Source: Chrysomallon squamiferum
Taxonomy: Eukaryota > Animalia > Mollusca
Direction: 5' to 3'
Assembly: GCA_012295275.1 (NCBI GenBank)
Contig: CM022679.1
Location: forward strand, 23,188,001-23,252,000
DNA: 64,000 nt
Position numbers and translations under genes: made by a program. The notes below the pieces were generated by a model. It was not told where the DNA came from. It made no database searches and saw nothing but the letters and a program-made list of their open reading frames with translations. Each line of letters opens with the position of its first letter. The stretch's first letter is position 1. Of this stretch, positions 1 through 49,074 are shown in pieces.

Positions 1-16
1 TGAAATGAGTTTAGAT

Positions 17-263
17 CAGGGTCGGCAACCTTTTGGAGAGGTGGCCAATGAGCTATGCAGTGTTCTGGAGGAGGGCCAAGACACACACACCGATTTTCTC
101 TCTCTTTCTCTCTCTGTCAATTCTATCTTCAGTGTTGAGCACCAAAAAGGGATGTTATGAAAGAAGGCTGCTTTGGTCTGGAGGTTTAAAAAAAAAAAAA
201 AAAAGTTAATGTAATAATCGGTGTCCATGTGTTCAATTGGCGGGCCTTGGGTTGCAGCATCTG
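17..263. mobile_element. hAT/Charlie-type MITE, copy in tandem unit 1
   Basis: Termini CAGGGTCGGCAACC...GGTTGCAGCATCTG; 8-bp flanks GTTTAGAT/GTCTAGAT match the NTCTAGAN target preference of Charlie/Buster hATs. Confidence 0.8.
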
Positions 264-1798
264 GTCTAGATGTTATCAACTATAGTTAGAAAATATTGAG
301 AAAATTTAATGTGTCTACATTAGTGGTAACGAAGATGTTTTTAATTTTTTTTTCTGATGAAATTTTAAAAATAAGTGAAATTGTCACTCATTAGTAATCG
401 CAAATCACTAATTTATAATACTTAAGTGTAAAAAAATCAAGTCACACGTGTAAAGAAAGGTATACTTTGCTATTTAAAGTTGTTACATTTATAAAGTTGC
501 ATCAGTTGACTCTATAGTGCTTATATAAAAAAAATAAAAAAATAAATGCTTTATTTTTCAGAAAAAATTACTCGAAATATGGCATTTTGCTTGACCTTGC
601 CCATATAAGTATATACAAATACAAATTTGAAAACGTGTGAACATGCACACGTGCACACTCGCGCTGACCTGCACGCATGCACACAACACACACACACACC
701 AATTTCTCATATATCCTTTGATGTGGCATAAATAACCAATTACTATTGTAGCTGAACAGTTATTAATGCATGTTCTCTGTATCTGTATTTGTTGGAACAA
801 TTGAAAATGTCTTAAACTTTATTTATTCATTATTTTATTTTATATTTTTAAATATTTCATTTAGGTGAAAAGTTCATTGGTTCATTGTTGCGGTGTGTAC
901 TCTTTTAACTGTTGTGGAGAACAATGGCTAATGAACCTGAAATCTGCAGTAAGTATATCTGTCTGTCTTTCTGTAGTGAACAAGTCATTATGACAAATGA
1001 TATAAATATGTTGGTTGATAAGTGTTTGTTGTCATAACAAGTACAAAACATTATTTTGTCCAATAATCTTGACCTGTGTGTTTCTAAACTGGCTTGCTCT
1101 TAAATTTTTCTGACATAACTACGGTAAGTTCAGGGCATGAAATTACAGGCAAAAGTAGCTATAGAATATTTCTGTTTATGCTGGAAATGCACGTATATTG
1201 ATTACTATATTTGTGGTCATAAACTGTTCTTTTTTATATTTACCCCAAATATTTAGTAAGAAGCATTTCAGGTTTAAATGCTAAACCATAACAAATTATA
1301 TAAAAACTAGATGATTCATTTATCTGTTCAGTTTTATTTAAATATGATGCAGTATTAAAACTACATGAAATATAATGTCACAATATATATTATTGTCTCC
1401 ATGCATGAATTGAAGTAACTTAGCTACTTGTGTTATGTTTATAGACAAAGCCATCACCAGCAGTAACCATTTGGGTTTTATCAGAACAATTGTTTTAGGT
1501 TGGACTGTTGCCCATGAATATCATAAAATGCATCAAACATAATTATAAATGCTTCTATGCTAGAAAAAACCTCAAAGCAAATACTAAGCTAAGAGAACTT
1601 TCATGTTCTGCTTTAAATATGACATTTAACACACCTGCACCTTTAATTGCCCATAGATTTATGATTATAGAGATCTTATTTCCCCTAATATCTTTCTGGA
1701 ATTGGCTCTGAACCAAATTTGTGTATTGCAGATGATTATGATTAGACATTAACTATTTGTTGTCCTAGCTGACATGTACATTTGAAATGAGTTTAGAT

Positions 1799-2054
1799 CA
1801 GGGGTCGGCAACCTTTTGGAGAGAGGTGGCCAATGAGCTATGCAGTGTTCTGGAGGAGGGCCAAGACACACACACCGATTTTCTCTCTCTTTCTCTCTCT
1901 GTCAATTCTATCTTCAGTGTTGAGCACCAAAAAGGGATGTTATGAAAGAAGGCTGCTTTGGTCTGGAGGTTTAAAAAAAAAAAAAAAAAAAAAAAGTTAA
2001 TGTAATAATCGGTGTCCATGTGTTCAATTGGCGGGCCTTGGGTTGAAGCATCTG
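1799..2054. mobile_element. hAT/Charlie-type MITE, copy in tandem unit 2
   Basis: CAGGGGTCGGCAACC...GGTTGAAGCATCTG with GTTTAGAT/GTCTAGAT flanks. Confidence 0.8.
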
Positions 2055-3590
2055 GTCTAGATGTTATCAACTATAGTTAGAAAATATTGAGAAAATTTAA
2101 TGTGTCTACATTAGTGGTAACGAAGATGTTTTTAATTTTTTTTTCTGATGAAATTTTAAAAATAAGTGAAATTGTCACTCATTAGTAATCGCAAATCACT
2201 AATTTATAATACTTAAGTGTAAAAAAATCAAGTCACATGTGTAAAGAAAGGTATACTTTGCTATTTAAAGTTGTTACATTTATAAAGTTGCATCAGTTGA
2301 CTCTATAGTGCTTATATAAAAAAAATAAAAAAATAAATGCTTTATTTTTCAGAAAAAATTACTCGAAATATGGCATTTTGCTTGACCTTGCCCATATAAG
2401 TATATACAAATACAAATTTGAAAACGTGTGAACATGCACATGTGCACACTCGCGCTGACCTGCACGCATGCACACAACACACACACACACCAATTTCTCA
2501 TATATCCTTTGATGTGGCATAAATAACCAATTACTATTGTAGCTGAACAGTTATTAATGCATGTTCTCTGTATCTGTATTTGTTGGAACAATTGAAAATG
2601 TCTTAAACTTTATTTATTCATTATTTTATTTTATATTTTTAAATATTTCATTTAGGTGAAAAGTTCATTGGTTCATTGTTGCGTGTGTACTCTTTTAACT
2701 GTTGTGGAGAACAATGGCTAATGAACCTGAAATCTGCAGTAAGTATATCTGTCTGTCTTTCTGTAGAGAACAAGTCATTATGACAAATGATATAAATATG
2801 TTGGTTGATAAGTGTTTGTTGTCATAACAAGTACAAAACATTATTTTGTCCAATAATCTTGACCTGTGTGTTTCTAAACTGGCTTGCTCTTAAATTTTTC
2901 TGACATAACTACACGGTAAGTTCAGGGCATGAAATTACAGGCAAAAGTAGCTATAGAATATTTCTGTTTATGCTGGAAATGCACGTATATTGATTACTAT
3001 ATTTGTGGTCATAAACTGTTCTTTTTTATATTTACCCCAAATATTTAGTAAGAAGCATTTCAGGTTTAAATGCTAAACCATAACAAATTATATAAAAACT
3101 AGATGATTCATTTATCTGTTCAGTTTTATTTAAATATGATGCAGTATTAAAACTACATGAAATATAATGTCACAATATATATTATTGTCTCCATGCATGA
3201 ATTGAAGTAACTTAGCTACTTGTGTTATGTTTATAGACAAAGCCATCACCAGCAGTAATCATTTGGGTTTTATCAGAACAATTGTTTTAGGTTGGGCTGT
3301 TGCCCATGAATATCATAAAATGCATCAAACATAATTATAAATGCTTCTATGCTAGAAAAAACTCAAAAGCAAATACTAAGCTAAGAGAACTTTCATGTTC
3401 TGCTTTAAATATGACATTTAACACACCTGCACCTTTAATTGCCCATAGATTTATGATTATAGAGATCTTATTTCCCCTAATATCTTTCTGGAATTGGCTC
3501 TGAACCAAATTTGTGTATTGCAGATGATTATGATTAGACATTAACTATTTGTTGTCCTAGCTGACATGTACATTTGAAATGAGTTTAGAT

Positions 3591-3840
3591 CAGGGGTCGG
3601 CAACCTTTTGGAGAGAGGTGGCCAATGAGCTATGCAGTGTTCTGGAGGAGGGCCAAGACACACACACCGATTTTCTCTCTCTTTCTCTCTCTGTCAATTC
3701 TATCTTCAGTGTTGAGCACCAAAAAGGGATGTTATGAAAGAAGGCTGCTTTGGTCTGGAGGTTTAAAAAAAAAAAAAAAAAGTTAATGTAATAATCGGTG
3801 TCCATGTGTTCAATTGGCGGGCCTTGGGTTGAAGCATCTG
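3591..3840. mobile_element. hAT/Charlie-type MITE, copy in tandem unit 3
   Basis: Same termini and flanks as the copies at 17 and 1799. Confidence 0.8.
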
Positions 3841-5379
3841 GTCTAGATGTTATCAACTATAGTTAGAAAATATTGAGAAAATTTAATGTGTCTACATTAG
3901 TGGTAACGAAGATGTTTTTAATTTTTTTTTCTGATGAAATTTTAAAAATAAGTGAAATTGTCACTCATTAGTAATCGCAAATCACTAATTTATAATACTT
4001 AAGTGTAAAAAAATCAAGTCACATGTGTAAAGAAAGGTATACTTTGCTATTTAAAGTTGTTACATTTATAAAGTTGCATCAGTTGACTCTATAGTGCTTA
4101 TATAAAAAAAATAAAAAAATAAATGCTTTATTTTTCAGAAAAAATTACTCGAAATATGGCATTTTGCTTGACCTTGCCCATATAAGTATATACAAATACA
4201 AATTTGAAAACGTGTGAACATGCACATGTGCACACTCGCGCTGACCTGCACGCATGCACACAACACACACACACACCAATTTCTCATATATCCTTTGATG
4301 TGGCATAAATAACCAATTACTATTGTAGCTGAACAGTTATTAATGCATGTTCTCTGTATCTGTATTTGTTGGAACAATTGAAAATGTCTTAAACTTTATT
4401 TATTCATTATTTTATTTTATATTTTTAAATATTTCATTTAGGTGAAAAGTTCATTGGTTCATTGTTGCGGTGTGTACTTTTAACTGTTGTGGAGAACAAT
4501 GGCTAATGAACCTGAAATCTGCAGTAAGTATATCTGTCTGTCTTTCTGTAGAGAACAAGTCATTATGACAAATGATATAAATATGTTGGTTGATAAGTGT
4601 TTGTTGTCATAACAAGTACAAAACATTATTTTGTCCAATAATCTTGACCTGTGTGTTTCTAAACTGGCTTGCTCTTAAATTTTTCTGACATAACTACGGT
4701 AAGTTCAGGGCATGAAATTACAGGCAAAAGTAGCTATAGAATATTTCTGTTTATGCTGGAAATGCACGTATATTGATTACTATATTTGTGGTCATAAACT
4801 GTTCTTTTTTATATTTACCCCAAATATTTAGTAAGAAGCATTTCAGGTTTAAATGCTAAACCATAACAAATTATATAAAAACTAGATGATTCATTTATCT
4901 GTTCAGTTTTATTTAAATATGATGCAGTATTAAAACTACATGAAATATAATGTCACAATATATATTATTGTCTCCATGCATGAATTGAAGTAACTTAGCT
5001 ACTTGTGTTATGTTTATAGACAAAGCCATCACCAGCAGTAATCATTTGGGTTTTATCAGAACAATTTTTTTAGGTTGGGCTGTTGCCCATGAATATCATA
5101 AAATGCATCAAACATAATCATAAATGCTTCTATGCTACAAACAAACTCAAAGCAAATACTAAGCTAAGAAAACTTGTACATTTCTGCTTAAAATATGACC
5201 CTAACACACCTGCACCTTTAATTGCTCATAGATATATGATTATAGAGATATTATTCCCACTAATATCTTTCTGGAATCGGCTCTGAGGATTAGCCAAGTT
5301 TCTGTATTGCAGATGATTATGATTAAACATGATATGCCTTTTGTCCTAGGTAACATGTATATTTGACATGAGTCTAGAT

Positions 5380-5752
<373 letters not shown>

Positions 5753-6343
5753 GTCTAGATGTTATCAACTACAGTTAGAAAATATTAAGAAAATTTAATG
5801 TCTCTGTATTAGTGGTAACAGAGAGGTTTTTAATTTGTTATTCTGATGAAATTAATACAAAATTGAAATTGTCACTGTGTAGTAATACCAGGTCACTAAT
5901 TTATAATACATAAGTGTAAAAAATCAAGTTACTTCTGTAAAGAAAGGTATGCTGTGCTATTTAATGTTGTTATATTTATAAAGTACACATTAGTTGACTC
6001 TATACTGTTTATAAAAAAAAAAAAAAAAAATTGCTGTAATTTCCAGAAAAAAGTTACTCCAGTTATGGCATTTTACTTGACCTTGCCCATATAAGTATAT
6101 ACAAGTACAAATTTGAAAACATATGCATGTACATGCACAAGTACACACTCATGCATATTCACACACACACACACATAACAATTTCTCACATATCTTTTGA
6201 TGTGGCATAAATAACCAGTTACTGTTAAATCTGAACAGTTATTAATGTATATTCTCTGTATCTGTATTTGTTGGAACAATTGAAAATGTCTTAAACTTTA
6301 TTTATTCATTATTTTATTTTATATTTTTAACTATTTCATTTAG

Positions 6344-7002
6344 GTGAAAAGTGCATTGGTTCATTGTTGCAGTGTGTACTCTTTTAACTGTTGCGGAGAA
6401 CAATGGCTAATGAACCCGATATCTGCAGTAAGTATGTCTGTCTGTCTTTCTGTAGTGAACAAGTCATTATGACAAATGAAATAAATATGTTGGTTGATAA
6501 GTGTTTATTGTCATTAGAAGTACAAAACCTTATTTTGTCTGATAACCTTGACCTATTGCAGAAACCAGTAATCATTGCATGATATAAGAAAAATTATTGA
6601 AAAAAAAAAAGCAGTTAGTGTGTGTGTGTATGAATTAGATATTACAAATCTTATTGTCGATTATAAATAAGATTATCAAATGTTAAGTGAATTTAACTTG
6701 ACTTACATATCAATTATATAATTGTCATACAGTGTTCACCGTTAAATATTTCCAGTCAAAATAGTATCTAGCTAAATGGCAGTGGCAGTTTTACATTCAT
6801 TTTTCAGTTGTGAAAAATGACTGGGAAATTATATTTTAAAAGCAGATTTTCTTTGTTGAGTGTTACAATAATTTTAGATTCTGTGAGTTATTTTGAGGAT
6901 TAAAAAAAAACACCAAAAAAACCCACCAACATTATGATGAAAAAAAATATGTTTAATAATTGTGGATAAAAACAGTGTTTAGTGATGTAAATACGAAAAC
7001 AA

Positions 7003-25116: not shown

Positions 25117-25773
25117 ATGGCCACTATGTTGGCAGCTGCGGCAAGCTTATGGTCAATCGTAAGGTTGGTTCCCTTAAAAAGTCAGTTCTGAGTCAAATAT
25201 GTCAAAATAATTACTGTAATTCCGAATCGCAATAACTTTAGTTTCATTTTGGTTGTTTGGTTTTTGTTTGCTTCCTTTTTTTTCCGAGTAGATGTATAAC
25301 TTTTTCAAACATGTTTTCCTTACAGCAATGAACAGGTTCAAAATGTTGCTAAGAAGATGGCTGCACGATCTGTGAAAATCACAATCCGTAACAAAACGAG
25401 GAAGAAAATGTCCTTCTCTTCAGAGAAATTCCTTCAAGGTTCCATACGTAAAACAAAAATGGATATTAAATCAAACAGTCATTTAAGCATCAATGCTGAA
25501 GGTTCAGCGGGTGTAGAGGGCTCTCTGGAATTTCGAGTTGGCACAAAACAGCTTTATTGTTATTTAGCTTTTAAAAATCCATTAACTGGGAATTACAGAC
25601 ATTCCATCCGTATTGGTGATCAACAGCCGCTACGAAATGCTTTGGATAGTCTCAAAGACGACTCCACGAAAAGTGAAACACATGGGCACTACAAGCTGAC
25701 CTGTTCTTCGAACGAGGATGAATTTATCTACACGTTAACAAGGGAGAGCAGATCAAAATGCGTTGTGTCTTAA
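25117..25773 (+). CDS. Aegerolysin/Cry34/actinoporin-fold-like protein with C-terminal CaaX, 164 aa, exons 25117-25163 + 25326-25773
   Basis: Exon 1 MATMLAAAASLWSIV AG|gttggt splices in phase 2 to ttacag|C, in frame with the 138-aa ORF. Pattern AARSVKITIRNKT...G...AEGSAGVEGSLEF...LAFKNPLTG resembles Cry34/aegerolysin (SAREVHIDVNNKTG...GTEGTIYY...LYFDNPFAG, recalled from memory). Ends RSKCVVS*. Splice structure is conserved in the paralog. Candidate TATA (CATATAAAG) at 24941. Confidence 0.8.
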
Positions 25774-37176: not shown

Positions 37177-37994
37177 ATGTTGGCAGCTGCGGAAAGCCTG
37201 TGGTCATTAGTAAGGTTGGTTCGCTTAAAAAGTCAGTTGAAAGTCAAATCGGTCAAAATAATTACAGTAATTCCTAATCGCAATAACTTTCGTTTCACTA
37301 ACTGTTTATACATATAACTGTATTCAATAAATGCCATTAGAGATCGATTTAACTCAGTATAATTAGACTGAATTTAATTTAACTATTATTTGTGTTGTTG
37401 TCATGCGTAACCTCTTTTATTGGACTGTGTAAAGTAGAATATATATATCTAACTGAAGGAAATGTGCTAATCGCACTTTTTACTTTTTTTTTTTTTTTTT
37501 TGATTACGTATATGTTTTTAAATATGTTTTGTCTTACAGCATAAAAAGTATTGAAAATGTTGTTAAGCAACTAACCTCACGATCTGCAAGAATCACAATC
37601 CGTAAGAGAACGAATAAAAAAAATGTTCTGCAGATCACGGAATGTTGAAGGTTCGATAACTTCAGAAGATATGAGTTTGGATGTTAATCCAAACAATGAC
37701 TTACTAATCGTGATTGAAAATCTAATGGATCTCAAGGGCTGTCTGGAATTTCAAATTGGCGACAAAGAGCTTCATTGTTATATTGGTTTTAGTAATCCAT
37801 GTACTGGGAATTACGGCCATTTCATCCATATTGGTAATCAGGATCCTCTACAGTTAGATTTTAAAAATCTGGAAGATGACTCCGCGAAAACTCGAGAACA
37901 TGGGGACTACCAGCTGACCTGTACCTCGAACGAGAATAACTTTACCTACACGTTGTTAAAAAAAGAGAGAAAATCAAAATGCGTTGTGTCTTAA
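37177..37994 (+). CDS. Second aegerolysin/Cry34-like CaaX protein, exons 37177-37214 + 37540-37994; +1 frameshift in an A8 run (error or pseudogene)
   Basis: Exon 1 MLAAAESLWSLV AG|gttggt; acceptor ttacag|C; then IKSIENVVKQLTSRSARITIRKRTNKK. A8 at 37616-37623 needs to be A7 to join the 123-aa ORF ending KSKCVVS*. Confidence 0.72.
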
Positions 37995-41157: not shown

Positions 41158-42265
41158 CAGTTATTTATAATTTTAATTTAGTTTATATCTGGCGATACAG
41201 AAATCCAGATAAGAGACAGTTTACCAGATCTCAAACTGGTAAAAATGTTATAGATCAGTCAAGGAAAAATTTATGTGTAAAAGTTCTGTTTTAAGATCTA
41301 AAGCGCAATGGAATCTAGATACGGATAGATATGTCGTTTTTCTCAGTTTAGAAAAATCAAACCGGGAATCAAATTCTATTGAAGAACTAAAAACAGTAAA
41401 TGATGGTTAACTAGAAAAACGGAAGATATATTAGAAAAAGCTTTTGAATTTTATTTTAAATTATATAGACAAGAAAACGTGGATGTTATTAAACGGGAAG
41501 AAATAATAAATTCAATAATCAAATAAAATAAAGGAATCTGAAATTGAAAACTGAGAGAAAGACATTACAACTAAAGAATTAAAGGATGTTTTAAAAGAAA
41601 TGACTAGCAATAAATCACCTGGTATGGATGGTCTAGCAGCTGAATTTTATGTTAAATTCTGGGAATATTTGAAAATTTTGTTTCATATAGTACTTAAGTC
41701 AATTCAGAAAGAGGAAATATTGTCACGTAGTATGAAAAAAGGGGTAAGATGTCCAATATAAGTAATGCTTTATGTTATTGTAGCTGAACCCTTCAATAAT
41801 TTAATTAAAAAGAGAAACAGCATGAATGGAATTAGAATAACAAATGAATTTAATTCTTTATTATTTCAGTATGCAGATGATACTACTGTAACTGCTCGTG
41901 ATACTCAGTCTGTTCAATCTGTTTTTAATACAATGAATATGTATTGTAGTGCTACAGGCGCAAAATTCAATGTAGATAAGTTAGAAGTACTTTGTCTTGG
42001 CAAGACCATGAAAGAAAACGTATCTTTTAATATTCCAATATTAATAAATACAGACAGAATTAAAAAGTCTAGGACGAAATAAACCATTATGTGAAAGGTT
42101 CAACTAGAAAAATAAATTAGATAAAATTCGTTATTTAATTAATTTATGGAGTCAGTGGAAACTTACTTTACACAGAAAAGCAGAAGTATGGAATACTTTA
42201 TTAACATCTAGACTGTGGTATATTATTAGCACAATAAATTTCCCAAATTGGGTAGGAAATGAAAT
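41158..42265 (+). mobile_element. Degenerate L1/Tx1-clade LINE ORF2 fragment abutting the RNA-gene array
   Basis: SNKSPGMDGLAAEFY and LLFQYADDTT...ATGAKFNVDK. Breaks at GAAATT|CTGG, where the homologous copy (minus strand, ~22790) continues GAAATTTACAAG. Confidence 0.9.
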
Positions 42266-42482
42266 TCTGGTGCTCTGTGTTGATTGGATGTCCGCACTAA
42301 GCTCGGTATCAATATGGTTTAACTCGCGGAGGCGAGAGAAACCAGGTTGTCTAAGGAGGGACGTAATGGCCCAGGGCGGAAACGCAGCAGGCAAAAGTCT
42401 CCGTGTCGAGTAGTAGTGGGATCGCATCCGAGAATAGGCACTGGTTAGCAGCCTAGACAATACAGCTGAACCTGACCTTTTT
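42266..42482 (+). pseudogene. 5'-truncated 7SL RNA copy lacking the first 82 nt
   Basis: Matches 44535-44751 and is joined directly to LINE sequence; ends in T5. Confidence 0.9.
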
Positions 42483-42841
42483 ATCAAATTTTAGTGTTAT
42501 TTTCCTCTATGCTCTGAGATTTCCATTTAATCCTTTCGAAATAAATCGAAAATTTAAACAGTTATTTTCATTGCAAGCTAATTTTTTGTCTGTCGGGAAT
42601 GCCATCTGGAAAAGAAAAAACAATTATTGTGTTTTATACTGTCATGTTCGCTAATGTGTTAGCTCTGCAGTATTATCGTCTTTCTTTACTTTTTTTTTCT
42701 CCCCTCCGGATGTGCATCTCTGACGTGGTTAATATTTCCCCTCGATTGTTTATAAGAACATTTGTCCGAAACTAATATAATTAACAGAAAATATTTTGAA
42801 AGATTCAATAATAATAATAATTAATAAATAATCAAAACGTA

Positions 42842-42961
42842 ACGTCTACAGCACTTGGTGTTCCCAGGCGGTCACCCATCAAAGTACTAACCGAGCCCTA
42901 CGTTGCTTAACTTCGGTGATGGGACGAGAACCGGTGTTTTCAACGTGGTATGGCCGTAGAC
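42842..42961 (-). rRNA. 5S rRNA gene (variant), copy 1
   Basis: Minus strand reads GTCTACGGCCATACCACGTTGAAAACACCGGTTCTCGTCC...CTGGGAACACCAAGTGCTGTAGAC, a mollusc-type 5S; T4 terminator at 42834-42837. Confidence 0.96.
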
Positions 42962-43089
42962 AGCAGTACATCGAAAATAATCGTATATGTGAATAATTTT
43001 ACGCATCAGGTTAACATATGATTTCTTCCTTCTTTCGTTGTTGTTGATATTATTAGTTTTTTTCCAGTTCTAATTTCTTCGCTACAGAG

Positions 43090-43266
43090 AAAACAAAAAT
43101 AAGCACGTCGATGTAATCACGTGGTTGCACTCCGTATCATCGGTATAGTTCACCGCGCTCGGAAGACTTCGGCGAAAATGTGCATTCTCTGTATTAAACG
43201 GATCGACAATCGGAAACTGAATCAAGACCAGAACATACCTCCACGTCAATCCGTGTTATTCTTCTC
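43090..43266 (-). ncRNA. Candidate unassigned structured small RNA (also ~45360-45536 and ~47627-47803)
   Basis: TATAAATA on the minus strand at 43296-43289, 30 nt before a G at 43266. The 5' and 3' ends are complementary, there are internal hairpins, and the segment ends at ATTTTTG. No family recognised. Confidence 0.35.
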
Positions 43267-43568
43267 AATTCACTGATACAATGGCAGTTATTTATACATG
43301 TACCAATAATCCACATCCCTTTGTTATGCACTGAGTGCAAGACTCAAACAGTGACGTTACGTCATTTCATTGTCAGTGAATATAGTAACGGTGCTTAGTG
43401 TTTCGAAGAAGTTATTGTTCACCTACATTATTGCTATAGTCGTTATAGGGAATTCCCCAGTTACTGTATGTGTTACAATTATTCTTACTATTATTATTGT
43501 TATTGTTGTTGTTCTTCTTCTTGCTGTCCTTGTTGTTATTATTATGATCATAATTATTCTTCTTCTTC

Positions 43569-43611
<43 letters not shown>

Positions 43612-43889
43612 CATCATCATCATCATCAATATCATCTCATCATCATTATTATTATTCTTATTATTGTTATTATTATTATTATTATTATTAATGACTATTA
43701 TTTTTCATTTGCGTATTCAGTCAGTGGGTCAGTTAGTGGAATAATTTATAGTTTATTGATTCATTTCCAAGCTTAGGTGTTGACTTGAAAGTGGGGTGCA
43801 TAAACATGTATTATCTAAAAATTAATGAAATAATATCGAATCAAAGAAAATATTGCAATTGTGTACAATCACTTTCAAGTGATTTGCAT

Positions 43890-43905
43890 GGCTCTTAAAA
43901 GAGCC
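43890..43905 (-). terminator. Replication-dependent histone-type 3' stem-loop, copy 1
   Basis: Minus strand GGCTCT-TTTA-AGAGCC (6-bp stem, 4-nt loop), 38 nt after the stop codon, followed by ATGCA and purine-rich GAAAGTGA. Confidence 0.9.
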
Positions 43906-43943
43906 GCCGTTTCAAAGGCATAATTATGTGCTTTCGGCTCACT

Positions 43944-44246
43944 TTACTGCATGTATTCGTCATCGGACTGCGATTCGGGCGAAACGATTGACAATTCCGT
44001 TGTCAGTTCGGCCACCGTTTCTGCTTTCCAGCAGGCGTATTCGTAGTAGGAATTACGCACACCCTCAACAGTGGCCATTTTCAGACGCAAGTTGTATCGG
44101 AACGATTTGTGGTTGTCCACTCTGGCTTTGTCGTATCGGAGCTGGAGCTCTTCCAGCTTGGTGTTCAGCATGACAATCTGCTCGCAGGCTCGTCTGAAGC
44201 GATTCTCTGTTTCGTAGAGTGCAGCGTACAGACTGAATTTCTCCAT
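43944..44246 (-). CDS. Intronless 100-aa non-histone helical protein with histone-type 3' end, copy 1
   Basis: GC-richer uninterrupted ORF MEKFSLYAALYETENRFRRACEQIVMLN...SDDEYMQ, with TATA and Inr upstream and stem-loop downstream. Identical in three copies. Confidence 0.88.
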   Translation of the reverse strand: MEKFSLYAALYETENRFRRACEQIVMLNTKLEELQLRYDKARVDNHKSFRYNLRLKMATVEGVRNSYYEYACWKAETVAELTTELSIVSPESQSDDEYMQ

Positions 44247-44280
44247 AGTTTTCTAATGACTTTCTGTAAATTCAAATCAA

Positions 44281-44318
44281 AACTGAATGTGGAAGAAACA
44301 GAAGCGTCTACCTTATAT
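44281..44318 (-). promoter_or_regulatory. Core promoter of the 100-aa gene: TATAA (44317-44313) and CATTCAGTT cap/Inr site (44289-44281)
   Basis: Spacing ~29-33 nt. CATTC resembles the invertebrate histone cap-site motif and TCAGTT the Inr consensus. Confidence 0.65.
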
Positions 44319-44452
44319 TCCTAGTAATTATGACAAGCACTAATACTCAATGCCATGTCAATTACATACACATCGTAAACAAATCAGGCAGTACTCAAAT
44401 GCCAGTCAATTAGTTGATCTAATTAACAACGAGGAATGACGTAATATTGATC

Positions 44453-44751
44453 GCCGGGAGTTGTGGCGAGCTCCTGTAATCCAGCTACTTGGAAGCATAG
44501 GTCTGTGGACAGCTTGACTTCGGGGGTTCTGCTCTCTGGTGCTCTGTGTTGATTGGATGTCCGCACTAAGCTCGGTATCGATATGGTTTAACTCGCGGAG
44601 GCGAGAGAAACCAGGTTGTCTAAGGAGGGACGTAATGGCCCAGGGCGGAAACGCAGCAGGCAAAAGTCTCCGTGTCGAGTAGTAGTGGGATCGCATCCGA
44701 GAATAGGCACTGGTTAGCAGCCTAGACAATACAGCTGAACCTGACCTTTTT
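44453..44751 (+). ncRNA. RN7SL: 7SL (SRP) RNA gene, full length
   Basis: GCCGGGAGTTGTGGCG...CCTGTAATCCAGCTAC (Alu domain); GTCCGCACTAAG; ACCAGGTTGTCTAAGGAGGG; helix 8 CCCAGGGCGGAAACGCAGCAGG; AGTAGTGGGATCGC; T5 terminator; ~299 nt. TGACGT at 44437-44442. Confidence 0.97.
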
Positions 44752-45110
44752 ATCAAATTTTAGTGTTATTTTCCTCTATGCTCTGAGATTTCCGTTTAAT
44801 CCTTTCGAAATAAATCGAAAATTTAAACAGTTATTTTCATTGCAAGCTAATTTTTTGTCTGTCGGGAATGCCATCTGGAAAAGGAAAAACAATTATTGTG
44901 TTTTATATTGTCATGTTCGCTAATGTGTTAGCTCTGCAGTATTATCGTCTTTCTTTACTTTTTTTTTCTCCCCTCCGGATGTGCATCTCTGACGTGGTTA
45001 ATATTTCCCCTCGATTGTTTATAAGAACATTTGTCCGAAACTAATATAATTAACAGAAAATATTTTGAAAGATTCAATAATAATAATAATTAATAAATAA
45101 TCAAAACGTA

Positions 45111-45231
45111 ACGTCTACAGCACTTGGTGTTCCCAGGCGGTCACCCCATCAAAGTACTAACCGAGCCCTACGTTGCTTAACTTCGGTGATGGGACGAGAA
45201 CCGGTGTTTTCAACGTGGTATGGCCGTAGAC
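45111..45231 (-). rRNA. 5S rRNA gene (variant), copy 2, with one extra G in GATGGGG
   Basis: Same as copy 1 apart from a 1-nt homopolymer insertion (possible sequencing error). Confidence 0.94.
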
Positions 45232-46157
45232 AGCAGTACATCGAAAATAATCGTATATGTGAATAATTTTACGCATCAGGTTAACATATGATTTCTTCCT
45301 TCTTTCGTTGTTGTTGATATTATTAGTTTTTTTCCAGTTCTAATTTCTTCGCTACAGAGAAAACAAAAATAAGCACGTCGATGTAATCACGTGGTTGCAC
45401 TCCGTATCATCGGTATAGTTCACCGCGCTCGGAAGACTTCGGCGAAAATGTGCATTCTCTGTATTAAACGGATCGACAATCGGAAACTGAATCAAGACCA
45501 GAACATACCTCCACGTCAATCCGTGTTATTCTTCTCAATTCACTGATACAATGGCAGTTATTTATACATGTACCAATAATCCACATCCCTTTGTTATGCA
45601 CTGAGTGCAAGACTCAAACAGTGACGTTACGTCATTTCATTGTCAGTGAATATAGTAACGGTGCTTAGTGTTTCGAAGAAGTTATTGTTCACCTACATTA
45701 TTGCTATAGTCGTTATAGGGAATTCCCCAGTTACTGTATGTGTTACAATTATTCTTACTATTATTATTGTTATTGCTGTTGTTCTTCTTCTTGCTGTCCT
45801 TGTTGTTATTATTATGATCATAATTATTCTTCTTCTTCTTTTTATTATTATTATTATTATTTATTATTATTATTATTATTATCATCACCATCATCAATAT
45901 CATCTCATCATCATTATTATTATTCTTATTATTGTTATTATTATTATTATTATTATTAATGACTATTATTTTTCATTTGCGTATTCAGTCAGTGGGTCAG
46001 TTAGTGGAATAATTTATAGTTTATTGATTCATTTCCAAGCTTAGGTGTTGACTTGAAAGTGGGGTGCATAAACATGTATTATCTAAAAATTAATGAAATA
46101 ATATCGAATCAAAGAAAATATTGCAATTGTGTACAATCACTTTCAAGTGATTTGCAT

Positions 46158-46173
46158 GGCTCTTAAAAGAGCC
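46158..46173 (-). terminator. Histone-type 3' stem-loop, copy 2
   Basis: GGCTCTTTTAAGAGCC on the minus strand. Confidence 0.9.
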
Positions 46174-46211
46174 GCCGTTTCAAAGGCATAATTATGTGCT
46201 TTCGGCTCACT

Positions 46212-46514
46212 TTACTGCATGTATTCGTCATCGGACTGCGATTCGGGCGAAACGATTGACAATTCCGTTGTCAGTTCGGCCACCGTTTCTGCTTTCCAGC
46301 AGGCGTATTCGTAGTAGGAATTACGCACACCCTCAACAGTGGCCATTTTCAGACGCAAGTTGTATCGGAACGATTTGTGGTTGTCCACTCTGGCTTTGTC
46401 GTATCGGAGCTGGAGCTCTTCCAGCTTGGTGTTCAGCATGACAATCTGCTCGCAGGCTCGTCTGAAGCGATTCTCTGTTTCGTAGAGTGCAGCGTACAGA
46501 CTGAATTTCTCCAT
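46212..46514 (-). CDS. Intronless 100-aa non-histone protein, copy 2
   Basis: Identical ORF; TATA at 46581-46585. Confidence 0.88.
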   Translation of the reverse strand: MEKFSLYAALYETENRFRRACEQIVMLNTKLEELQLRYDKARVDNHKSFRYNLRLKMATVEGVRNSYYEYACWKAETVAELTTELSIVSPESQSDDEYMQ

Positions 46515-46720
46515 AGTTTTCTAATGACTTTCTGTAAATTCAAATCAAAACTGAATGTGGAAGAAACAGAAGCGTCTACCTTATATTCCTAGTAATTATG
46601 ACAAGCACTAATACTCAATGCCATGTCAATTACATACACATCGTAAACAAATCAGGCAGTACTCAAATGCCAGTCAATTAGTTGATCTAATTAACAACGA
46701 GGAATGACGTAATATTGATC

Positions 46721-47019
46721 GCCGGGAGTTGTGGCGAGCTCCTGTAATCCAGCTACTTGGAAGCATAGGTCTGTGGACAGCTTGACTTCGGGGGTTCTGC
46801 TCTCTGGTGCTCTGTGTTGATTGGATGTCCGCACTAAGCTCGGTATCGATATGGTTTAACTCGCGGAGGCGAGAGAAACCAGGTTGTCTAAGGAGGGACG
46901 TAATGGCCCAGGGCGGAAACGCAGCAGGCAAAAGTCTCCGTGTCGAGTAGTAGTGGGATCGCATCCGAGAATAGGCACTGGTTAGCAGCCTAGACAATAC
47001 AGCTGAACCTGACCTTTTT
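46721..47019 (+). ncRNA. RN7SL: 7SL (SRP) RNA gene, full length, second copy
   Basis: Matches 44453-44751. Confidence 0.97.
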
Positions 47020-47378
47020 ATCAAATTTTAGTGTTATTTTCCTCTATGCTCTGAGATTTCCGTTTAATCCTTTCGAAATAAATCGAAAATTTAAACAGTT
47101 ATTTTCATTGCAAGCTAATTTTTTGTCTGTCGGGAATGCCATCTGGAAAAGGAAAAACAATTATTGTGTTTTATATTGTCATGTTCGCTAATGTGTTAGC
47201 TCTGCAGTATTATCGTCTTTCTTTACTTTTTTTTTCTCCCCTCCGGATGTGCATCTCTGACGTGGTTAATATTTCCCCTCGATTGTTTATAAGAACATTT
47301 GTCCGAAACTAATATAATTAACAGAAAATATTTTGAAAGATTCAATAATAATAATAATTAATAAATAATCAAAACGTA

Positions 47379-47498
47379 ACGTCTACAGCACTTGGTGTTC
47401 CCAGGCGGTCACCCATCAAAGTACTAACCGAGCCCTACGTTGCTTAACTTCGGTGATGGGACGAGAACCGGTGTTTTCAACGTGGTATGGCCGTAGAC
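47379..47498 (-). rRNA. 5S rRNA gene (variant), copy 3
   Basis: Matches copy 1. Confidence 0.96.
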
Positions 47499-48198
47499 AG
47501 CAGTACATCGAAAATAATCGTATATGTGAATAATTTTACGCATCAGGTTAACATATGATTTCTTCCTTCTTTCGTTGTTGTTGATATTATTAGTTTTTTT
47601 CCAGTTCTAATTTCTTCGCTACAGAGAAAACAAAAATAAGCACGTCGATGTAATCACGTGGTTGCACTCCGTATCATCGGTATAGTTCACCGCGCTCGGA
47701 AGACTTCGGCGAAAATGTGCATTCTCTGTATTAAACGGATCGACAATCGGAAACTGAATCAAGACCAGAACATACCTCCACGTCAATCCGTGTTATTCTT
47801 CTCAATTCACTGATACAATGGCAGTTATTTATACATGTACCAATAATCCACATCCCTTTGTTATGCACTGAGTGCAAGACTCAAACAGTGACGTTACGTC
47901 ATTTCATTGTCAGTGAATATAGTAACGGTGCTTAGTGTTTCGAAGAAGTTATTGTTCACCTACATTATTGCTATAGTCGTTATAGGGAATTCCCCAGTTA
48001 CTGTATGTGTTACAATTATTCTTACTATTATTATTGTTATTGCTGTTGTTCTTCTTCTTGCTGTCCTTGTTGTTATTATTATGATCATAATTATTCTTCT
48101 TCTTCTTTTTATTATTATTATTATTATTTATTATTATTATTATTATTATCATCACCATCATCAATATCATCTCATCATCATTATTATTATTCTTATTA

Positions 48199-48232
<34 letters not shown>

Positions 48233-48429
48233 GACTATTATTTTTCATTTGCGTATTCAGTCAGTGGGTCAGTTAGTGGAATAATTTATAGTTTATTGAT
48301 TCATTTCCAAGCTTAGGTGTTGACTTGAAAGTGGGGTGCATAAACATGTATTATCTAAAAATTAATGAAATAATATCGAATCAAAGAAAATATTGCAATT
48401 GTGTACAATCACTTTCAAGTGATTTGCAT

Positions 48430-48445
48430 GGCTCTTAAAAGAGCC
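48430..48445 (-). terminator. Histone-type 3' stem-loop, copy 3
   Basis: GGCTCTTTTAAGAGCC on the minus strand. Confidence 0.9.
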
Positions 48446-48483
48446 GCCGTTTCAAAGGCATAATTATGTGCTTTCGGCTCACT

Positions 48484-48786
48484 TTACTGCATGTATTCGT
48501 CATCGGACTGCGATTCGGGCGAAACGATTGACAATTCCGTTGTCAGTTCGGCCACCGTTTCTGCTTTCCAGCAGGCGTATTCGTAGTAGGAATTACGCAC
48601 ACCCTCAACAGTGGCCATTTTCAGACGCAAGTTGTATCGGAACGATTTGTGGTTGTCCACTCTGGCTTTGTCGTATCGGAGCTGGAGCTCTTCCAGCTTG
48701 GTGTTCAGCATGACAATCTGCTCGCAGGCTCGTCTGAAGCGATTCTCTGTTTCGTAGAGTGCAGCGTACAGACTGAATTTCTCCAT
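48484..48786 (-). CDS. 100-aa non-histone protein, copy 3; ORF intact but promoter removed by the array breakpoint
   Basis: Identical ORF. Array homology ends at 48821, 35 nt upstream of the ATG, before the Inr/TATA. Confidence 0.75.
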   Translation of the reverse strand: MEKFSLYAALYETENRFRRACEQIVMLNTKLEELQLRYDKARVDNHKSFRYNLRLKMATVEGVRNSYYEYACWKAETVAELTTELSIVSPESQSDDEYMQ

Positions 48787-49074
48787 AGTTTTCTAATGAC
48801 TTTCTGTAAATTCAAATCAAATATTCAAGTACACACGATTCACAACATGTTGCAGTGAACGAAGGGTGACAACTCTTATCGCCTTACATGTCTATGTCCT
48901 ATATATCAGATTACTGTTATTATAATAATGTTTTGTTTTCCCAGATAACTATAGAAAGAGATAAAATCATCAGTTTTCTCTATATATTTCTGTTGCATGT
49001 AGAACAATATTTTCCGATAAATGTTCGAGATAAAAAAAAGAACTATACGTAATCACCTACACTGTGATATATAG

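Follow-up and report, generated by a model that had tools for sequence, protein, structure and literature searches.

Metazoan replication-dependent histone genes are short and intronless, have a TATA promoter, carry a hairpin of 6 bp and a 4-nt loop shortly past the stop codon with a purine core at a fixed distance, usually lack a nearby poly(A) signal and lie in tandem arrays; derived members lack the hairpin and have poly(A) signals or an intron. According to the available text of PMC7026596, the hairpin is bound by SLBP and the downstream element by pairing with U7; CPSF73 then cleaves between the two at a fixed distance, leaving 4-5 nt. Histone mRNAs are described as the only known non-polyadenylated cellular mRNAs (accessible portions of PMC4604434 and PMC7026596), and no genuine non-histone SLBP target was found in HeLa cells as far as the accessible portion of PMC4604434 goes. 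The hairpin and purine elements are carried by bivalve histone genes (PMC6210712, available sections), and the 5S rRNA gene is linked to histone units in Artemia and Mytilus, in composite units with histone quintets (PMC13525598, available sections). A term search of a 2026 preprint on the evolution of the pathway (10.64898/2026.10.14.759114) gave no match for non-histone, mollusc or annelid, and the preprint seems not to treat such genes. Our literature search found no description of the gene family reported here or of invertebrate non-histone stem-loop genes, with supplements, a possible place for such listings, lying outside the search; nor did it find a paper on a composite unit of 5S with a non-histone protein gene and 7SL or U1.

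We analysed a stretch of 64,000 nt from Chrysomallon squamiferum (Mollusca; GCA_012295275.1, contig CM022679.1, positions 23,188,001 to 23,252,000 of the forward strand), hereafter the window. A sequence-only reading had described in it a minus-strand intronless ORF with TATA and Inr elements, a 38-nt spacer after the stop, a histone-type hairpin, a purine element and an AATAAA, and each of these lies where it had been placed (Table 1). The window gene and its relatives share with replication-dependent histone genes the traits listed above, derived members included, but the window gene encodes neither a histone fold nor an H1 winged helix. On the evidence below, it is an intact member of a mollusc and annelid family of non-histone genes with a histone-type end; its message would probably be processed by SLBP and U7, and its product would probably be a nuclear protein made in bulk for dividing cells. 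The processing machinery is already known; the protein it would carry fits no family described so far.

Table 1. Features of the tandem array in the window (window coordinates; L001 is one of the closest intact relatives tested)
Feature	Position	Strand	Remarks
Whole tandem array	42266..48821	.	~2.9 units of ~2,268 bp, >99% identical
7SL copy, 5'-truncated, left edge of the array	42266..42462	+	Adjoins a LINE-type reverse-transcriptase fragment, 41765-42082
5S rRNA gene, downstream of copy 1	42843..42961	-	Rfam RF00001, 110.9 bits
AATAAA, possible fallback poly(A) signal	43752..43757	-	Found by sequence only; 133 nt downstream
Conserved post-stem block, candidate U7-binding element	43855..43889	-	Purine core GAAAGTG (43876-43870); 29/35 identical in L001
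16-nt histone-type stem-loop	43890..43905	-	38-nt spacer (43943-43906) after the stop; 16/16 identical in L001
100-aa intronless ORF, copy 1	43944..44246	-	Uninterrupted, colinear with homologs; dN/dS 0.054 against L001
Core promoter	44281..44319	-	TATA-like AATATAAGG (44319-44311) and Inr-like CATTCAGTT (44289-44281)
Conserved proximal promoter	44325..44440	-	TGACA/TGTCA motifs at 44360-44356 and 44335-44331; 84/116 identical in L001
7SL (SRP) RNA gene, head to head with the ORF	44453..44750	+	Rfam RF00017, 251 bits, full length
5S rRNA gene, one-base insertion	45112..45231	-	Rfam search
Copy 2	46158..46514	-	ORF 46514-46212, stem-loop 46173-46158; promoter upstream intact
7SL RNA gene, second full copy	46721..47018	+	Rfam search
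5S rRNA gene, third copy	47380..47498	-	Rfam search
Copy 3	48430..48821	-	ORF 48786-48484, stem-loop 48445-48430; promoter lost, homology ends at 48821

A search with the Rfam Histone3 model (RF00032), proposed by the sequence-only reading, gave 24.4 bits against a gathering score of 34, with an E of 0.0023 for the 8 kb searched; all 16 nt of the hairpin core equal the consensus core, and the mismatches to the model sit in the flanks. The same reading had cautioned that these flanks deviate, and they do: A-rich flanks support SLBP binding in histone genes, and the upstream A-run kept in 41-42 of 46 family hairpins is absent from the window copy, in which it is displaced by three bases and the A-rich 5' flank lacks the family form. 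The exact 16-mer, for which base composition gives a chance expectation of ~9e-6 in the window, occurs there only three times, each 38 nt past the stop of an identical 100-aa ORF. Between the window and L001 the synonymous sites are near saturation (dS 1.4), yet the hairpin, the downstream block and the promoter are retained to the degree given in Table 1, whereas beyond the downstream block only 67 of 151 positions are identical. Public RNA was considered as a source of evidence for transcription and rejected: the contigs over the ORF in three metatranscriptome runs (one study) also span the promoter, the spacer or the 7SL flank, and because this DNA is covered as well, they may derive from DNA.

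Fifty of 52 candidates were close homologs of the window protein, and a profile search returned 1,074 clusters at 50% identity, mostly unnamed. The named members come from Magallana gigas, Ostrea edulis, Mya arenaria, Mizuhopecten yessoensis, Dreissena polymorpha, Nucella lapillus and Lamellibrachia satsuma, that is, from bivalves, one gastropod and one annelid (Lamellibrachia satsuma), and all are annotated as 'hypothetical' or 'uncharacterized', the oyster member K1PRP6 among them; the lophotrochozoan relatives to which the sequence-only reading had pointed do exist, and they make up a large, apparently undescribed non-histone family of molluscs and annelids. Three metagenome records bear unrelated automatic names, for which Pfam gives no backing. 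Selection was assessed by the Nei-Gojobori method over residues 8-85 in 17 non-overlapping pairs with dS of 0.05-1.2; dN/dS was below 1 in 17 of 17 pairs (median 0.15; in four distant pairs dS is probably underestimated), and together with the value for the window against L001 this places the ORF under purifying selection, a check that had been suggested for it.

In Ostrea edulis (P0145, XP_048777949.2) one gene model carries the family domain at its C-terminal end, joined to a SWIM zinc-finger region, and may be a fused annotation. Four members in Mya arenaria (P0126, P0277, P0312 and P0358) have neighbouring locus tags (MAR_017180-017287) on one chromosome-scale record, which suggests a gene cluster in this species.

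A metagenome scan confirmed 101 stretches, of which 80 were retained, yielding 76 loci; 67 of these were testable, the others having no stop in the contig (four) or less than 100 nt downstream (five). Of the 67, 45 had a hairpin in the first 200 nt past the stop (40 of them in the first 63 nt), compared with 80 of 13,400 shuffles (0.6%); counted by cluster, the figures were 35 of 54 (90% identity) and 15 of 20 (70% identity). The loci cannot be treated as independent, since several are near-copies or have a common contig-name prefix. The 45 include L002, a copy interrupted by a premature stop, and three loci beyond the 45 carry near-matches (L034 and L056) or a hairpin ahead of the called stop (L018). 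Elsewhere in the loci the pattern matched 12 times in 327,814 positions; second copies, H3 genes and L018 account for eight of these matches and an upstream copy probably for one (L035), while three resemble chance. Since the pattern, which fixes 8 of the 16 positions, was written after the hairpins had been viewed, the weight is carried by features that it did not select. An A stands at positions -4, -3 and -2 in 37, 42 and 41 of 46 family hairpins, respectively, and a purine core follows the stem by 12-15 nt in 43 of 46 hairpin genes (exactly 14 in 27), a fixed spacing that the pathway predicts because CPSF73 cuts at a fixed distance between hairpin and U7 element. In an alignment of 26 hairpins (24 hand-picked from the 46 of the family and two from H3 genes, which resemble them), 98% of cells pair and both sides change in four of the six stem pairs. 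Four members (L022, L024, L030 and L057) have hairpins that exceed the Rfam gathering score. Most homologs carry the stem-loop after the stop, a test that the sequence-only reading had proposed, and with it the purine element at a histone-like spacing. The central claim of that reading, of a non-histone gene built for histone-type 3' processing, passes on these computational grounds (the hairpins of homologs, their covariation and the purifying selection on the ORF), and is weakened on the side of the window copy by the atypical flanks. Two histone-type hairpins in succession follow a single gene in L047 (1194-1240) and in L018 (589-620).

The hairpin is not universal in the family. With a looser test included, 19 of the 67 loci have no convincing hairpin, so it is dispensable in some lineages, the H3-linked clade included. 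A quick tree places 13 of the hairpin-less loci together in a single group (support 89) that nests within the hairpin-bearing ones, and on it the trait needs 5 changes compared with a mean of 16.8 after shuffling. Of 17 hairpin-less loci, 15 have an AATAAA no more than 300 nt past the stop, compared with 13 of 46 hairpin loci (Fisher p 3e-5; L002, L018, L070 and L071 left out, 13 of the 17 being one clade and several AT-rich). In L070 and L071, both without a hairpin, the reading frame breaks off at a GT in the same codon, and a second exon was located in L071. This division between hairpin and AATAAA parallels that between replication-dependent and polyadenylated histone genes, and suggests that the hairpin is the working 3' signal where it is present. 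In L029 (1428-4072) two divergent paralogs face away from each other, one with a hairpin ~165 nt past its stop and the other hairpin-less with an AATAAA.

Because the gene ends in a histone stem-loop and a purine element, its message is likely cut by SLBP and the U7 snRNP. Pol II would transcribe it from the TATA/Inr promoter, SLBP would bind the hairpin, U7 would pair at the purine element, and CPSF73 would cleave 4-5 nt after the stem, near 43885, to leave a message with no poly(A) tail and a fast turnover. By analogy with histone genes, we hold these steps jointly to be highly probable for the family and probable for the window copy. The product would be a small basic, acid-tailed nuclear protein, supplied in bulk to dividing cells.

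AlphaFold predicts two antiparallel helices (residues 2-43 and 47-88, mean pLDDT 90) and a low-confidence tail, in agreement with the two heptad-like helical segments (~4-43 and 47-86) that had been read from the translation. Near-invariant residues in the family alignment include C21, R37, Y38, R50, Y51, R54, E61, G62 and Y70. The core has a net charge of +5 in the window protein and a family median of +9, and the tail is negative in 46 of 49 representatives; a basic hairpin with an acidic serine-rich tail, as modelled, would suit DNA or histone binding. The absence of a histone motif, also part of the earlier reading, holds: the model is a plain two-helix one, no Pfam family was found for the protein or in common to the members, and a profile comparison with H3 gave a probability of 0.11%. 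The conserved domain had no match at threshold in Pfam, NCBIfam, PHROGs or PDB sequences. Homodimer prediction, run without the alignment, scored 0.02, which speaks neither for nor against a dimer, and the best ESM Atlas matches (0.83 and 0.81) serve as leads only.

A TATA-like box is present in 37 of 49 family representatives. Among the 34 promoters that extend over 120 nt, 28 contain TGACA/TGTCA; its total of 67 occurrences compares with 8.4 in shuffles (maximum 18) and is 4x background; it was one of seven patterns tried and was picked after the promoters had been viewed. TALE homeodomains bind TGACA. Novel TALE genes of the oyster show expression between the egg and the blastula stage (PMC5322547, available text). 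A tie between these factors and the gene family is a guess, and TALE control through TGACA, with expression in oocytes or cleavage embryos, together with a DNA- or histone-associated structural or chaperone-like role of the protein, is a tentative proposal to which we give somewhat less than an even chance. A wider version is doubtful: the family would add a 'sixth' gene to the histone regulon of Spiralian animals and encode a chromatin protein that is ancient but no histone. The gene would be TALE-driven in oocytes and cleavage embryos, SLBP/U7-processed and placed in tandem with 5S, 7SL, U1 or H3, and would repeatedly have yielded polyadenylated, replication-independent paralogs.

Tandem amplification had also been proposed, and the window does hold three copies of the gene in a ~2.27-kb unit. 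Each unit consists of the ORF (minus), 7SL (plus, head to head) and 5S (minus), with ~170 bp between the inferred starts of ORF and 7SL and a full-length 5S gene repeating in register with the ORF gene. Where homology of copy 3 ends at 48821, contigs of three public runs (X3, X4 and X5) run on into a normal promoter, and in X4 the depth is ~2,000-3,700 per contig on the unit compared with 24-66 on longer flanking contigs, which is not a copy number but hints at many copies of the unit. On these two grounds the array in the window is probably one part of a larger one. At 44445, contigs of X1-X4 diverge 8 nt upstream of the 7SL start, and the L001 promoter is likewise without 7SL; related animals therefore have units in which the promoter is not joined to 7SL. 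The 5S copies of the window differ at 42881, 42900 and 42921 from all or nearly all 5S contigs of X4 and may represent a minor or variant 5S type.

The partner genes differ between relatives. 5S is linked to the family gene in L024 and L033, and in L079 (435-1968) a U1 snRNA gene, a hairpin-bearing family gene and 5S form a 2.14-kb unit repeated along a 15-kb contig. The latter came from the scan of prokaryote genomes, in which 7 of 80 stretches were confirmed, giving five overlapping loci (L077-L081), all on this one contig; filed in a bacterial MAG, it was considered as a bacterial homolog and rejected as likely mis-binned animal DNA, the same contig carrying the U1 and 5S genes. In L037, L052 and L053 an H3 gene that has a stem-loop of its own precedes the family gene by 1.1-1.4 kb on the same strand, and these three loci belong to the hairpin-less group, which counts against a simple picture. 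Two family copies occur in 7 of the 76 short loci, as same-strand second copies in six and as an opposed paralog pair in one. Like the composite 5S units with histone quintets, these arrays combine a homogenised 5S unit with high-demand genes and have lineage-specific partners (available sections of PMC13525598), but the partner is a non-histone protein gene with 7SL in the window or with U1 snRNA in L079.

Several other readings of the locus were weighed against the preferred one. That a chance hairpin stands beside a spurious ORF, or that the array is an assembly artefact, might be argued from the Rfam score below the gathering threshold and from the short array in a repeat-rich window; family-wide conservation refutes it in the homolog survey, and near-identical contigs of the unit at high depth in a public run, which may or may not share its source with the window, speak against an artefact; the probability left to this reading is negligible. 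A drifted copy is a more serious, if unlikely, proposition: the message of the window lineage would be mainly polyadenylated at the AATAAA, or two-ended like that of H2A.X, a published dual-end precedent (available text of PMC4604434), and the hairpin would only bind SLBP on a poly(A) message. The atypical 5' flank, present in L001 and L002 too, would fit this, as would a second hairpin predicted to enclose the purine core (43865-43885, -7.3 kcal/mol compared with a family median of -1.95), which is predicted with compatible G-U changes also in L001 and L002 and is rarely as strong elsewhere; an AATAAA is present in the window and in four of the five closest intact relatives tested (L001, L003, L004 and L005, not L006). 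However, the hairpin and the downstream block are the best-kept noncoding parts in the comparison with L001 whereas the sequence of the AATAAA region is unconserved, and the purine core of the window gene keeps the modal spacing of 14 nt.

Two further readings concern what the protein is for, and we consider both improbable. In one, the gene is a selfish or once-viral passenger that spreads by riding on tandem arrays of essential genes (5S, 7SL, U1 or H3) and borrows the histone 3' end for the dividing germ line, its protein being selected for the sake of the element. Partner genes that change between lineages, the extreme diversity of the family (the 1,074 clusters), clusters of 35-135 near-identical members and a window array that is a fragment cut at both ends are all compatible with this, but changes of partner are normal for 5S and histone genes too, and members with introns exist. 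No viral relatives were confirmed among 50 and among 28 pattern matches in two scans of viral contigs, from a library that we take to hold mainly prokaryotic viruses, and none were found in PHROGs or BFVD. Apart from H3, no common neighbouring protein was identified among the 76 loci, a reverse transcriptase appeared in one of 34 neighbouring ORFs scanned, and no transposase, capsid or polymerase neighbours, viral homologs or terminal repeats were seen in these loci of 1-6 kb (repeats by self-alignment of five). In the other, a histone-type mRNA would encode a non-chromatin protein, for example a fast on/off stress, immune or membrane-remodelling factor with a helical hairpin like the ESCRT-III core or HR1. 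Hairpins of ESCRT-III, prefoldin and ROP are indeed among the best structural matches, with an rmsd of 1-2 A, HR1 gave a faint match in a single member out of 60, and CCAAT is weakly enriched in family promoters (19 compared with 8.5), whereas the sole H3 promoter seen has CCAAT. These matches are all generic, however: what is shared with ESCRT-III core, prefoldin, ROP and HR1 hairpins is two long antiparallel helices, in predicted fold only, with no sequence relation to the window protein at threshold. Foldseek against PDB and BFVD gave no match at E 0.001 (for the structural matches above, PDB E >0.3 and ~5-18% identity), a wide search returned generic hairpins only, and structural Z values of up to 12 are in a range common among helical bundles; the arrangement that the modelled fold matches is a common one, and the match says nothing about function. 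In the systems studied, moreover, SLBP couples such messages to DNA replication (as far as the available sources describe it).

As a conserved, multicopy non-histone family under selection that carries all of these signals, it would be the first exception to the histone-only rule and a second natural substrate of SLBP and U7, and molluscs and annelids probably use the pathway of histone messages for a second kind of protein. Poly(A)-selected RNA data would under-represent such a message, a possible reason why so large a family is without a name. The oyster, through its annotated member K1PRP6, offers a direct test system.

Elsewhere in the window, a tandem repeat of ~1.79 kb in three to four copies occupies positions 1-6700, and no Rfam or tRNA gene was found in it. 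Two paralogous ORFs at 25357-25773 and 37623-37994 end in a CaaX-like CVVS; the first has a weak, below-cutoff Pfam match to Tox-SGS (E 0.013), no significant PDB match was obtained, and both belong to a segmental repeat of 10-12 kb that contains LINE fragments as well.
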